DNA of 64,000 nucleotides, taken from NCBI GenBank assembly GCA_965112155.1, contig OZ218099.1. One strand, 5' to 3'. A program made the translations under genes and the position numbers. The notes beneath the pieces were generated by a model that saw nothing but the letters and a program-made list of their open reading frames with translations, did not search any database and was not told the DNA's origin. Below are positions 1,745 through 33,411 of this stretch, piece after piece. Position 1 is the stretch's first letter. Every line of letters begins with the position of its first letter. Origin of the DNA: Podarcis liolepis. Its lineage: Eukaryota.

Positions 1745-2865
1745 CTGTACAAGAAAACTGAGAGAAGATTTGGGGTATAATATACAGTTTGCAGCATGGG
1801 AAAAACTATGGAGAGAGGATCTGAAATTTACAGCGTGGTATACATTGAAATAAAATTATATGAAAATGATGTACCGCTGGTATGTAACCCCCAGTAAATT
1901 AGCCAAAATGTACGGGACAAGCTACAATGTTTGTTGGAAATGTAAGGAGAAGGAGGGCACCTTTTACCATAAGTAGTGGAATTGTAAAGTGATCAAGGAA
2001 TTCTACAAAATGATATACAATGAGTTGAAGAAAATATTTAATAATCTTTGTTAAAAAAACAGAAACCTTTTTTGTTATGAATTGTAGGTGCAGAGATACT
2101 GAAGGAACTGAAAAGTCTGTTTATGTACACGACAACAGCTGCAAGGATGCTGCTTGCCCAGAGCTGAAAGATGATAAGATACCTACGAGGGCAGACTGGC
2201 AGATGAAATTATTGGACTATGCAGAGATGGCAAGGAAAATCAGAAATCAGAAGGATCAAAACTTCAACAGAGAATGGGACAAATATAGATTGTATTTGAA
2301 AGACCACTGTAAACATTTGAACTCTTTGGCAGGTTTTAAATAACTCTTACAATGATACATCGACTTTGGATATAATGGACAGGGCCGCCTTTACCCAGGG
2401 GTGGGGGGCACCTGGGTGCTGAATTCTGCGGGGTGCCAGGCACCCGCTGCTTAAGCTCTTAACTATCTACCTGTTATGAAATAGTAATTTTGATCAAGGT
2501 AGAAGAACAAAATACATATATACCTAGGTACTACCGAAATGTATACCTACTGTTTCACTAAAAGACTTTTGACTTTGTGTGCTCATTTACCAAAGATGTG
2601 CCGTGCCAGTGGTGGTGCTTGTCATTCACAAGGCTAAACGAAATTTGGGGGTGCTGGGAGGATCCTTGCACCCCGGCGGCACATATGCTAAAGACAACAC
2701 TGATAATGGAGGACTGTTAACTAGATGTACTTATGATATGCAGTTGGAAAAGTTACTTAAAGAACCCATGGAGGGGAGGAGTGAAGTCTTAGGATTCGAA
2801 AGAATCTTGTATAAAATTCAAATATTTGCAAGAATATTATTTCTGTGAATGAACTTGTAAATAAC
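1745..2865 (+). mobile_element. L1-type LINE 3' fragment with CCHC zinc knuckle
   Basis: [17 protein letters not shown]...[16 protein letters not shown], followed by an ORF2 tail related to 210-372. Contains stops and frameshifts. Confidence 0.8.
2380..2702. mobile_element. Non-autonomous hAT element nested in the L1
   Basis: 8-bp TSD ataatgga at 2372-2379 and 2703-2710. Imperfect TIRs CAGGGCCGCCTTTA and CAGTGTTGTCTTTA. Confidence 0.8.
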
Positions 2866-8831: not shown

Positions 8832-11800
8832 GTGCAAAGACAGTACTAACAGAACCATTTAAACACCCATGCAAATTAAAATGTGAAAACTCAAAACATA
8901 GTCAACTTGATAGAATTTTTGGATGTTTTAAATGCCCGTGTTAACTAACTCAAACTGTACAATGAACCTTAAATATATTTTCGTGTGAAATTTCCTATAA
9001 ATGGCATTAACAATGAAAACATATAAAATGCTGATAAACTTGAATTAGATAACTTTTAGAGATGCGTGAAGCATTAAGAAAATAATTTAAACTAACTCTC
9101 CAACTAATATCGAACTGCAGCTAAGGTTGCCACCATTTCAAAATAATAGTAATAACAAATTCATCATCAGAGCACTTACAGAAATAATTTGACACATAAG
9201 GTATGTGTTGTATATAACCTGCAAAGATAATGAATTCCAATGTATCTATTAATTAAAATGGATAGAGATGCTATCTGTATAAGCTAAAATATGGTAGTGA
9301 TTAATTAACATTCCATTTATTCCTCAAAAATTCAGACAAATGTTTCCTAGTGCATTTTGTTAAACTTTACCTTTGGTGTTAAGCAGTGTCTTGATAGTGT
9401 TCCCTTTAAATAAATTTCTAAAGTAAAGATTCTTTGGCATGGGGGGGTTGGAGTAGGGCTAGGTTGGTAAGGAAGAGACTACTATACACTGACAAATATG
9501 CCTTTCTGAAGACATTTACCTTCATGAAACAATGTCTAGAGGCCTGACCTTCATTTATACTCAAGGGGAATGACGCAAAGAGCATGTGGGGTTCTGATAT
9601 GCACATGGAACTCTAAATGTGCATGACCCTGCTTTGGTGTTTGGTACGGAGGCACCAGACCCATGGTAAACTCATTGGTAGAGGACGATCACACAGGCAC
9701 AGTTCTTCTGTTCTAAGCCCACGTACTATAGCATGCATTGTCCATCTGCATTGCCCATTGTGCAGACCGCTCGCCTTTTAATTCTCCCATAACTGGAAAC
9801 ATGAGCTTTGCTCCTCTGTCATGATGGCAAAAAGCCACTATGTTCTAAAAGGTAGAGAATTTTTAAAGGAGCCCATTATAACACATAGGTCAGGTCTCCT
9901 CTCTCTACCCATAGGTATGCTCATTCGACTACATGACCTCATGTTGCCTGGGGTCTACTTTATAGCATGCTGATTAGCTCAAGGGTTAACTCAGAGCTGC
10001 CCATTAAAATGGAGTTGCACCAGCCCTATTCTCTCAAGATCATAGCTTTAGTGCAAGTGAACATCAAAGCACATCTTTCTGTTGCCATGTCTACAAAATT
10101 CGGCTATGGATCTCCAATCATAGAAGGAGCACTGCGCCAGCAGTTACTGCCCAGTCTCTTTAGTGTTGAGAAAGCTGAAATATCAATCACTCAATATGTG
10201 CAGGTATTTACGAGATGCTAATGCAAATAGGGCATGCGCACATGTACATCAGAGCCACTGGAAGGGGTGCTAACTGAAAACTCTCAGTCGCTTGATTTCT
10301 CTCTGCATTGTGTCAATGATCCAGCTAATGGTCTGTGCATTGACTGTTATAAAGTTGCACTTCCCACAGATTTGTGTGTTAAAATTCTTTTCTGGAATCC
10401 AAGTCTTATGCAAAAGGGTGTTTAAATTATTCTGCTAGAGAACTGCAAATATTGTACTTGGTTTTTTTAAAAAAATCACTGAACAATTACTGTTTCTATT
10501 GACTGCTCATTTACAGCTTATTTAAATATTTACATGATTTTAGGACACTAACCTAAACCATAAATAGAATCAGCTTTTTGCCTTACGTTAAGTACAAATT
10601 AGAAGTTAAAAATGTTAAGAAATCTGATAATATTTACACATGTTCGGTTTTAATTATGATTGCTCACTTTGTATGTTCTATGTACAGATAGCAAAATGTT
10701 ATGACCACTACTTTAAAAGTATTGTACCCTGGCCTTCCTTTTCGCTTTTTTTCCATATAAATATTTCGTATTTTTTCTGCTCCTTCTAGGTATTAGGACT
10801 TTTTTTTTAAAGTTACTAGTGGACAATGTTTTTATTTTAAAAAAAGAGAAGAAACAGGCAAGCAATGTGAGAGCTAGTCTACTTTGAGATGCTAGGAGGT
10901 ACAGTACTATCATAATGTCAAACTGTGAAATGCTTCGTAAGAATTATATGCATTGATCTGCTGATATAGAAATGCCCAGTTACCCTGTATAGTAAGATTT
11001 TAATTACATTAATAATTTGCTTTCTCAAAAAAATATTCACATATCATTTGAATATAGAAAGAAAACTGTTATTAGCTTATTCCTTTAAAACACCTATGTA
11101 AGAGTCTAGCCCAAATCCAGACAACCACAAGAGCTACAGGAGGGAGGATGCCTGCCTGCGTACCAAAAAAGAAAGAAAGAAAAGAAAAGAAAAGATAGGG
11201 CTCAGCAGCACCGTCTTAGTCTCAGCCCGGATCATCCACCAGGAAGGCAAGAGCAGGCAGTGCTTGCTTTTGACTCTGTGAGCCCTCTTCTCCTTTCCCA
11301 TAACTGACTGGCAGTATAAGCATCTCACCCCCTTCAGTACAGATCATCTCTTAAGTGGGGGGCAGGATCATCAAGACAGAGTCCACGTGAGCTTTTGCTT
11401 ACTCCTCATTCCTGTTTCCTTCTCACTGTGCGGATGTGATATAAAGGGAGAAACCATGATCCCACAACTCTGCTAGGGTTACAAACAGTTTGATAGATCT
11501 TGGAATTTCACCTCCCCACCCCCCAAATTCCTTTTGGCAACCTTCCTGCACCTCAATAAAGCAGAAACCCATTTCCATGTGGGTCGCTCTCACTGGATTA
11601 GGATGTCTGTGTGTATATATCACGTATATTACACGCACACACACACAGAGGAATATATATACACATATTGGCATACATGTCTATATATTCGTTGTTTGCT
11701 TGGATAATGTTTAGTGTTTTGTTTTGTTCGCTTACATTAACTTTGCTAACTATGAAATTGGAACACAGTTTCAGGTTTGCTTTTTGTTTTTGTTTTTTTA

Positions 11801-14579: not shown

Positions 14580-14969
<390 letters not shown>

Positions 14970-17242: not shown

Positions 17243-18164
17243 CTGCAAAACAAATACGGCATTTTCAATTACATCCAAGGTTAAAGAACAGGAGCACTGG
17301 TTAATCTGAACAGCTATACTGGGGGTGGTGGGTTGGTTGGATGGGGTGAGTCACACAAGCAGGGTAGCAAAGCTATTTTAAAGTTTCATTTTCCATTTCC
17401 AGTCAGAGTCCAGACCTCAGAAGTTAAGCCAGTCTTCAGCCTTCTACACACTTCAGGTAAAATGGAACTGTGCACTTGGCCAGAGATAAATTTGCTTGAA
17501 TGTAAAATAGGGGTTGGTGTATTCTGACAAGGTCACTTTACAGAATATTGAGGGTATGAAACACTGAGAAAAAAGTGCCTGGTAATAAATATAAATCAAA
17601 TTCTCAAATGGCCAGCTTTGGAGTCTTCTATGGCTGCTGCGGAGATGCCATTAACGGTTGCTGCAATGTGAATAACTTGTCACACACCCAAAGAATTTAG
17701 GAGAAAAACAGCATATAAGCAATTTAGTATTACTCTTTTTTTCTTGTCAGATGTTTTTCTGCTGTTATCAGACTCCTTGTCTGATAACACCACAGTTTGA
17801 GAAGGCTGGAGGTCTCTACACCTTTTCCAAAGAGACATTGGAAATTACTACATAGCCGTAAATTAGTAATGGATGAACCTCCCAATTGATTTACTGTATA
17901 GCAGTTAGAAAGTGATTGCACATGTCTTCAAGCTTTTCCCCATTGGAAATTGGTCTACCTTTCATTTCCGAAACAGGAAATGCACAAGGTTATGATAAAG
18001 GATAAAAGGATGAAAAGCAAATTGACCTGATTTTTGGATCTGAAGTGAAGTTTTAGGAAGGCAACTGAGAGCATCATTGCAATACAGCAGGTTCACCCAT
18101 CCCTAATGAAAATGTATGCTTATAACTATATAGAAGCTTACAATACAACAGTGAAACACATTAA

Positions 18165-18512
18165 TTCTGCAGGGCGCCTTTTATCCAGACGGATCCCAAA
18201 GCGCTTTACAGATTTTTAGAAAGCGACATCACTTCACCAACAAGTGCAATCACCTCTCAGGCGAAATGGGGTGGCTATCTAACATCGCCAAACAACGCAT
18301 TGTATTTTAGTACAGGAAATGAAGAATGCTGTAGCCAATTAAAACTATGCAGTGGGTGGGTGAGTGGTGGGAATGGTTCAGAAGGTAGAAGACAACTTAG
18401 AATACAACCAAAACTTGGACAGGAGCCTGGCATTAAGATGCCAGTTCTTGCAAAAAGTGCCGTGGGATCTTTAATTGACCACTAATGGTCCAAGATCTCA
18501 CTAGTAAGTCTC
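18165..18512 (-). mobile_element. AmnSINE1 (DeuSINE) remnant: Deu domain and 3' tail
   Basis: Minus strand reads gtggtcaattaaagatcccacggcacttttt...attcttcatttcctgtactaaa...ggtgaagtgat...tgtaaagcgctttgggatcc...gataaaaggcgc, collinear with the AmnSINE1 consensus as I recall it. Confidence 0.8.
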
Positions 18513-18547
18513 TAAGGATAGAATCATTAGAAAACAATAAAATATAC

Positions 18548-18598
18548 CTTTGTTGAATACATTTCTGGACAATGATATGTGCCAATTATTCTTCTGTC
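18548..18598 (-). CDS. GABRB2: Cassette exon, 51 nt, chicken-type beta2L: DRRIIGTYHCPEMYSTK
   Basis: Acceptor ttttattaacttacag| and donor AAG|gtatat; phase 0-0, 17 codons, ends in the S-x-K PKC consensus. This fits the published description of chicken beta2L (a 51-nt exon with a putative PKC site). Confidence 0.8.
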
Positions 18599-19832
18599 CT
18601 GTAAGTTAATAAAATCAAGACCGGTTTCCATAGAGAAAAGGCAGCTGTTAGCTTTCATTAAAAATTAATGTACTATAGGCTATTATCATAAACGATGCAC
18701 TTTAATTAAAAGCACAGGGCAATCTGAGCCAACAATCAGCAGAAGTATATCCTTGGTTTAGAGGTGCTGTTGTTGTCTTGGCCCTGACATTGTAGACAAC
18801 ACAAATTTGTAATGGAAATGTACAGCCCCCGCACACACAAAAACCTGGTCATTTTTGACCAAGAAAGGAACGATGACATGTAAACGTTAGTTAGGAGAGA
18901 GGGGAACAACATGGGGATTTAAAAGGTGGTAGGGGGAAGGAAGTCTGGATGCTGATGTGGTTCTTCAGCCAAATAACAGGATTATTGATAGGGCAAGACA
19001 GACTTTATGTATAAAAAAAATCCACAGGGCAGGGAAAATAGGTAAACATGTGAAAGGGGACAAGTAACAAAAACAGAAGATGAATAGTGCAAAATATTAA
19101 CTTGAACATAATAATCATGGAGGTATCAAACAATCACTTTAAATGATAACATGATTAAGTGATAAAAATAGAATTCACTGTTGGGCCTAAAATCAGCTTG
19201 CAAAATGTAGACCACAGAGCATGGGACATTGCTGACCCTCCCAGCTCAAATAGCAGATAGACCTACATGGCAGGTGATTCCCAATATCTAGAAACTCCAA
19301 AATGATGGCTCTCTATAGGTGTTGACTCTTTAATATCAGCAGCACACAAATCTAACAAATTATTCAGGTATAAAATAATTATACCTATATAATAAAGTGA
19401 CAGTTTTTATTTAGTGGTTACATTAGTAGCTTTCTTGCTTTAAAAAGCAGCTTTATTCTTGAGATGCTTCTGTAGTGCACATTTATTATTTCAAACATGC
19501 ATCAAACTGACACAGTAAAGCCTTTCAGCCCTTCAATTCCATTGCCTGCAAGCAACTCACTTTTAAAACATGGACAAACGAAGCTGTCAATACAGTCATA
19601 CTTTTTTATTATTATCTCTGATTCTAAAATCAAATGGAACGAAGAAAACAATGTGTGAGAGCACTAATGCAACATTGTCAAAATTGGCCCAATTATTGGA
19701 TGGATTGTCTTATCCATTCAGCATTTCACCCCTAACAAAGCCCTTCAGTAAAAGATCTGACTGATCATTTCAAATCAGTATAAAAAATTTTTCTTCCAGT
19801 AGCACCTTAAAGACCAACTAAGTTAGTTCTTG

Positions 19833-19870: not shown

Positions 19871-20044
19871 ACTGAAACAGAAGTTGCCAGATCCTTCTAT
19901 ATAGTGAGAAGGTGGGGAGGGGTGTTACTCAGAAGGGTGGTGGGAATGGGAGATAGGCCTATCTCCCATTCCCACCACCCTTCTGAGTAACACCCCTCCC
20001 CACCTTCTCACTATATAGAAGGATCTGGCAACTTCTGTTTCAGT

Positions 20045-24069: not shown

Positions 24070-24700
24070 GAAGGAGCCATAGTTCCCACTAAAACGAGGA
24101 ATAAGTTAAAATCGTGACTCCATACTAGAACCTTAGCAGTCAACTCCATAATAATAAAACAAATGGAGTATGTGCTATATTCACAAAGGGCTAGACCAAC
24201 ATGGTTTAAAGCTAAACCTACTAAATTAATTCATAAATTGTCATTGCAACATAGATTATTTATATAAAAATTCTTTTGTTGCTTTTCTACTAAAAGAATT
24301 CAAAGTGACTTACAATGTAATGGATGATGAGAAAACAGTGGATATTTTATCTGGGTTTTAGTAAAGCATTTCATACAGCACTATACAATATCTTATGGTT
24401 AGAAAGCCAACATAAGATGTCTTGGACAATTAGTACAATCAAATGGATCAAAAACTGGCTATCTAACCGTATTAAGAGAGTAATCGTAACTGGCAGTCCA
24501 TCTAGATGGGGAGAGATTTCCAGTGGGATCCAGGGATCGCAATTCGGTCCCATTTTGTTTTATATCTTTATAAAAGATCTGGAAGACAAAGTAGAGAATA
24601 TGCTAAATAAGTCTTTTGGCTTCTACTAATTAGGGAATGGTGAGCAGAGCTAGAACTAACATAGTAGTTGTAAAATAACTCTAAATACTTCTTTGAAATT
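24070..24700 (+). mobile_element. Ancient CR1/L3 LINE RT remnant overlapping the beta2L exon in antisense
   Basis: ORF 24324-24629 reads YLGFSKAFH...[42 protein letters not shown], i.e. the CR1 motifs DFSKAFD, W..NWL..R.QRV and GVPQGS.LGP.LFNIFINDL. A QHG remnant lies near 24197. Outer boundaries are approximate. Confidence 0.85.
24468..24578 (-). CDS. GABRB2: Cassette exon, 111 nt, orthologue of the mammalian beta2L exon: [37 protein letters not shown]
   Basis: Acceptor tttgtcttccag| and donor ACG|gttaga; phase 0-0, no stop. Aligns with the human 38-aa beta2L insert as I recall it ([38 protein letters not shown]). Confidence 0.9.
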
Positions 24701-30225: not shown

Positions 30226-30501
<276 letters not shown>

Positions 30502-33258: not shown

Positions 33259-33411
33259 CTAAAGCCACTCTGGCAGCTGAAGCATCATAATTGATCCAGA
33301 ATGAAACCCAAGAGAGAATAGTGATCAGAATGGAAGGCATATAGGTCTGAAGTATGAAGTAGCCAATATTTCTCTTGAGTTTGAAACTGAGCGACAGCCT
33401 TGGATAGGAAC
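33259..33411 (-). CDS. GABRB2: GABRB2 coding exon, 153 nt, loop C and M1: (G)[50 protein letters not shown](G)
   Basis: Translated by hand. Acceptor ctgttctag| and donor |gtaagc. Phase 1-1. Confidence 0.96.

Follow-up and report, generated by a model that had tools for sequence, protein, structure and literature searches.

What is the 51-nt segment that lies in frame within a long intron of a GABAA receptor gene of the lizard Podarcis liolepis, and how does it relate to the two inserts, one from chicken and one from human, that have been given the same name, beta2L? We asked this on a stretch of 64,000 nucleotides from contig OZ218099.1, referred to here as the window. A first-pass annotation, made from the letters of the DNA, had proposed that the segment is the orthologue of an exon of the chicken gene; chicken GABAA beta2L reportedly arises from a 51-nt exon with a putative PKC site, as described by Harvey et al. 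in 1994 (PMID 7505310). The lizard segment is that known chicken exon, present in RefSeq models including those of reptiles, so it is an ordinary exon and its finding is not new. The added value is the history that can be resolved around it, namely two unrelated cassettes lying in tandem in lizards, snakes and turtles, which settles a loose end of the beta2L naming. The explanation that we consider best, and hold with good confidence, is that of an optional in-frame exon of lizard GABRB2 that equals the chicken beta2L insert and likely brings an extra PKC serine.

The gene and the 51-nt exon

GABRB2 lies on the minus strand of the window, where a search with Pfam PF02932 placed three exons of a Cys-loop receptor. 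Exon 8 (TM1; 33259..33411) and exon 9 (TM2-TM3 and the start of the large intracellular loop; 30244..30488) were delimited by the Pfam search, translation and tblastn, and the last coding exon (the rest of the loop, TM4 and the stop; 14580..14927) by translation, a PDB search and tblastn. The translation, the PDB search and tblastn with a lacertid model agree on GABRB2, and the PDB matches of the last exon (E 1e-71 for beta2, 8e-45 for beta1 and 4e-40 for beta3) point to this gene and not to GABRB1 or GABRB3. The intron between exon 9 and the last exon is 15,316 nt long, with its donor after 30244 and its acceptor before 14927, both in phase 0, and it contains two cassettes: the 51-nt exon and, 5.9 kb upstream, a mammal-type exon 10 on which the first-pass annotation was silent.

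The 51-nt exon (18548..18598, minus strand) runs from 18598 to 18548, exactly 51 nt between ttacag and gtatat, as had been annotated without mention of the strand. It is a phase-0 AG..GT cassette encoding the 17-residue peptide DRRIIGTYHCPEMYSTK, which ends in S-T-K, such that the PKC consensus noted earlier is present in the translation; the plus-strand reading of the same letters has a stop. When the intron was scanned for open in-frame AG..GT candidates of 21-180 nt, 649 were obtained, 21 of them 51 nt long, and the exon ranked 14th overall and first among those of 51 nt by an approximate score of its splice sites. The motif [ST]-x-[RK] occurred in 22 of the 103 intron candidates of 45-57 nt; a PKC motif by itself is weak evidence, common by chance. 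Size and motif alone are suggestive and not decisive, and as criteria they were moderately specific. It is the identity of the protein among sauropsids, together with a splice-junction contig, that places the exon beyond chance.

Several other features of the window were recorded. The top-scoring pseudo-exon candidate of the intron is an open frame of 87 nt at 21206-21120 (minus strand), and no insert matching it was seen among the inserts listed for GABRB2 records. Rfam returned 31 sub-threshold matches, none overlapping the 51-nt exon; a palindromic hairpin at about 19900-20015 matched many miRNA models below their gathering score and is probably a simple or MITE-like palindrome. Fragments of the 3' part of an L1-type ORF2 were found at 214-369 and 1767-2340 (plus strand).

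Orthology with the chicken insert

When the 45-aa frame that surrounds the exon served as the first query, two candidates were obtained, a sparrow GABRB2 model and a skink model that reads as GABRB2. For a broader comparison, 115 records of the GABRB2 search were gathered by shared exact words and cluster look-ups, a procedure that favours identical copies, and the large clusters contributed 15 of 87, 15 of 24 and 15 of 17 members. Since a species is represented by several predicted isoforms, and since these were gathered by exact words and from clusters listed in part, the counts describe a sample and are not species frequencies; clades were assigned from the source names. Among the 115 records listed, 57 carry the peptide, identical at 17 of 17 residues in every one of them: 25 of 27 bird records, the single crocodilian, 25 of 47 from squamates, 5 of 10 from turtles, one of the two unnamed and none of 28 from mammals. 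The holders include chicken and other birds, alligator, turtles and squamates, so the comparison with bird and reptile GABRB2 isoforms that the first-pass annotation had recommended bears it out. Three Gallus gallus GABRB2 RefSeq records (P0025, P0026 and P0065) have exactly this 17-residue insert between the peptides of exon 9 and the last exon, and with this identity the orthology of the lizard and chicken exons, which had been matched on size, position and motif, becomes virtually certain. The invariance of the exon is not special, because the adjacent constitutive loop varies hardly more, matching at 17-20 of 20 residues in the records that contain the anchor. Amphibians and fish had no record among the matches listed, which is weak evidence given the clustering at 90% and the word seeds, and no chain with the 17-aa insert was found in the PDB.

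Putative function and regulation

Inclusion of the exon would lengthen the intracellular TM3-TM4 loop by 17 residues and set S-T-K directly before the last-exon peptide. No other [ST]-x-[RK] motif occurs in the 51-nt exon, in exon 10 or in the 90 leading residues of the last exon; an R-R-A-S motif is located in the last exon. According to a published account (PMC3829460), every beta2 isoform already has an established PKC serine, S410, beta2L has 17 extra residues in chicken (51 nt) and 38 in human with a PKC consensus in both, and the 8-aa cassette of gamma2L adds a PKC-consensus serine. S-T-K would likely give PKC one extra serine beside S410, by which receptor trafficking or run-down might be tuned. 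Whether PKC phosphorylation is the function for which the exon was selected is, judged from its sequence, about evenly balanced. The gamma2L precedent of an exon that adds a PKC serine, and the lack of any second such motif in the loop parts scanned, speak against the main alternative, in which the exon is real and has been kept for something else: docking or spacing, a role of its Tyr, His or Cys, or recognition by a different kinase. We regard this alternative as tentative, yet it comes out nearly as likely as the PKC role because all 17 residues, and not S-T-K alone, are fixed. It also gains from the frequency of the motif among pseudo-exons, from the S410 serine present in every isoform and from the title of Harvey 1994, in which the chicken site is called 'putative'.

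The splice sites of the exon are weak (acceptor 0.8 and donor 2.2 by the rough score, the constitutive sites reaching 7.0 and 8.8), and its inclusion may be conditional for that reason. A cluster of six YCAY words lies 172-196 nt downstream of the exon (18352..18376, minus strand); along the 49,421 sense-strand nucleotides scanned, no other cluster reaches five YCAY starts per 30 nt, and such a downstream arrangement is known for NOVA enhancers. We propose it as a candidate NOVA-type intronic enhancer, which together with the weak splice sites could confer neuron-type-specific inclusion. The RBFOX word TGCATG is absent from the sense strand up to 890 nt away from the exon, and in the window it occurs 63 times against 59.5 expected. 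By the title of a reference in PMC2014790, gamma2L is regulated by NOVA through a downstream UCAU-rich enhancer. The gamma2L cassette resembles the 51-nt exon in being short, in lying in the loop and in contributing a serine within a PKC consensus; it differs in gene and in sequence, and for the beta2 exon PKC phosphorylation and NOVA control are predictions from its consensus and its YCAY words.

Origin of the 51-nt exon

The exon lies within a segment (18467..18820, minus strand) that has homology to a dispersed element, with copies on two further contigs (G000:C8:30.874 Mb and G000:C7:50.899 Mb), such that at least three are present in the genome: the one in the GABRB2 intron, the C8 copy (L001:4057-4425) and the C7 copy (L072, about 1456-1639). 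The C8 copy is 74% identical over 94 columns (E 5.6e-9), and over about 350 nt it scores 137 against a shuffle maximum of 77. It has AG and GT at the same places as the exon, but 54 nt apart and with an in-frame TGA. Its identity to the GABRB2 copy is 34/51 inside the exon and 55/68 columns in the flank 18675-18599, the latter figure being inflated by how the C8 copy was found. With the seed excluded, the score of C7 against the GABRB2 flanks was reached by 0 of 1000 genomic controls upstream and 8 of 1000 downstream, and that of C7 against C8 by 1 of 1000 upstream and by 26 of 1000; for GABRB2 against C8 the distal part of the upstream flank, with the seed likewise excluded, gave no significant score (217 of 1000 controls).

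It appears fairly probable from these alignments that the exon derives from an old, low-copy dispersed element that supplied its splice sites. Exonisation would have taken place in the sauropsid ancestor, or earlier with a loss in mammals. The competing possibility, that an old duplication of part of the GABRB2 intron gave rise to the C7 and C8 look-alikes, or that these are conserved paralogous elements, and that the exon arose de novo from the intron, seems to us rather unlikely. It is favoured by the retention of both splice-site blocks in the C8 copy, by the count of three, since DNA and pattern searches of the genome gave no further copies, and by the region of the exon matching none of the L1, CR1, RTE and other LINE copies tried. 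The three copies are, however, on three contigs, the likeness of C7 to C8 is independent of GABRB2 (the upstream comparison above), the identity is lower in the exon than in the flank, with the flank figure inflated as stated, and a Pfam scan of 184 of the 261 ORFs listed around the C8 copy (at least 70 aa) recognised no host gene, its only matches being two to GIY-YIG.

We return to the dispersed element, of which no convincing inverted repeat was seen in either copy examined. The extra matches of one genome search proved to be a different repeat, outside the homologous part, and a derivation of the exon from a CR1 reverse-transcriptase fragment was not supported, as its scores at 15 LINE loci were within the shuffle range. 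As separate observations, two facing GIY-YIG ORFs at L041:8085-9170 (minus) and 9202-9999 (plus) probably belong to Penelope-like elements, and a 453-aa ORF at L041:1889-3247 (minus) had no Pfam match.

Splicing of the exon

Four sequencing runs were aligned to 17800-19400 in search of junctions. In run X8, derived from a related organism whose DNA runs share 0.72-0.73 of words, and guessed to be RNA, one contig of 83 nt with a depth of 3.3 was obtained, whose letters 29-81 (53) equal 18600-18548 without mismatch. Its loose end of 28 letters equals 30246-30273 of the window, the end of exon 9, such that the contig represents the junction of exon 9 with the 51-nt exon and skips 11.6 kb, exon 10 included. 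At the joint, two letters can be assigned to either exon, as required for an AG/GT splice. The junction was seen in one of the four runs, X5 giving a short spurious match and X23 and X12 no alignment. The one contig resolves the upstream side of the exon; neither a downstream junction nor one of exon 10 with the 51-nt exon appeared among the reads of these runs. The first-pass annotation had counted an absence of junction reads against its own reading, and this objection falls with the contig.

The flank that precedes the exon (18599..18679, minus strand) is conserved, as judged from read-through models of sparrow and skink and from the C8 copy; its last 30 nt (10 codons) have an identical translation in the read-through gene models of both species, and a conserved intron flank is expected of a regulated cassette. 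The upstream-extended exon of those models is unusable in the lizard, which has no AG at -30. Lacertid models with and without the 51-nt exon (P0011 and P0107) both exist, as database models only, and at the level of such models the loop is lengthened by 17, 37 or 54 residues over the 474-aa short form. We consider it highly probable that the exon is real and that its inclusion is regulated. A chance pseudo-exon, or a conserved non-coding element never spliced in lizards, could account for the weak splice sites, the rank of 14 among 649 and the three runs without a junction; it is very improbable in the face of a contig that joins exactly to exon 9 and of a frame and a peptide that are invariant across sauropsid records.

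A second cassette in the same intron

The mammal-type exon 10 (24468..24578, minus strand) has 111 nt, encodes 37 aa and was candidate 3 of the 649; it was identified by its match to residues 360-397 of mammalian beta2 (E 2e-11) and by records, its peptide being 37/37 identical to those of Podarcis and Lacerta. Among the 115 records listed, those with exon 10 are 42 of 47 from squamates, 10 of 10 from turtles and 25 of 28 from mammals; none of the 27 bird records has it, nor does the crocodilian one. On that list, 20 records from squamates and 5 from turtles have both exons in tandem, in models of lizards, snakes and turtles. When the two cassettes were compared, their protein score was reached by 1945 of 2000 shuffles and their DNA score by 480 of 1000; likewise, no homology of the 51-nt exon to the human 38-aa insert was detected (1922 of 2000 shuffles reach the score).

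The 38-aa beta2L insert of human is encoded by exon 10 of GABRB2 (Zhao et al. 2009; PMC2741204), and two papers (PMC3829460, PMC2741204) present the 17-aa and the 38-aa insert as one beta2L or 'Exon 10' that differs between species, the two having 'little resemblance'. Since both cassettes co-occur in tandem and are unrelated in sequence, the chicken and human beta2L are different exons. The idea of a single exon with species versions, the chicken type being a diverged or duplicated mammalian exon 10, draws on the shared intron, the shared phase and the shared name, and it is effectively refuted, with hardly any probability left to it, by the distance of 5.9 kb between the two exons in this genome, by the 25 records that have them in tandem, by a similarity not above that of shuffles and by a CR1 match in exon 10 only. 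In the literature covered, with subscription journals outside that coverage, we found no paper that has both exons in one genome.

The lizard 51-nt exon shares with the chicken beta2L exon its gene, its place in the TM3-TM4 loop, its length, its phase and its peptide, the last as in the Gallus RefSeq isoforms; unlike in chicken, the intron that holds it also has exon 10, which is missing from the bird records listed, and there are models with +54 aa. Human exon 10 is likewise inserted optionally and in frame at this junction, with 24578-24468 as its lizard orthologue; it is unrelated in sequence to the 51-nt exon, and in reptiles it is shorter by one codon. By these protein records the absences are apparently reciprocal, of the 51-nt exon in mammals and of exon 10 in archosaurs. 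Because lizards, snakes and turtles carry both exons, results on chicken beta2L are not transferable to the human exon studied in schizophrenia.

Exon 10 is contained in a relic of a CR1/L3-type LINE reverse transcriptase that lies antisense to the gene (24307..24611, plus strand) and was delimited by ORF2 alignment. The strand opposite exon 10 aligns with ORF2 of a CR1-type LINE of this genome at 44% over 91 aa (E 3e-20), and the region has about 60% DNA identity to a CR1-type LINE copy over 290 nt; the copies of this genome are ones that we take to be CR1 from their reverse-transcriptase motifs. Used as a positive control, exon 10 scored 33-38 at three CR1-type loci, where the shuffle maxima were 15-20. 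The CR1 label agrees with the LINE3 annotation published for the human exon 10 (PMC2741204). The alignments show a repeat origin for exon 10, in what reads as an antisense CR1/L3 relic, and the exon would have arisen from that copy before the split of mammals and reptiles and later have been lost in birds and crocodilians.

Taken together, we lean slightly towards a history in which unrelated old repeats colonised the intron twice and each was exonised into a cassette with a phospho-site, the CR1/L3 exon in the amniote ancestor and the 51-nt exon in sauropsids. Turtles would keep both cassettes with both sites, squamates both with a natural T365A, birds and crocodilians the second only and mammals the first only, such that the beta2L of chicken and that of human would be convergent. 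As a part of this history, it is somewhat probable that lizards can make a loop of four isoforms.

The substitution T365A is reported to alter current run-down in human receptors. With positions counted from a mature-chain alignment with mammalian beta2, the residue at human Thr365 is Ala in 41 of the 42 squamate records listed (one not parsed), and in this lizard too; it stays Thr in 10 of 10 turtle records and in 23 of the 25 mammalian records listed (two not parsed). Squamates therefore offer a natural T365A exon 10, and the roles of the two phospho-cassettes can be compared directly in one animal.
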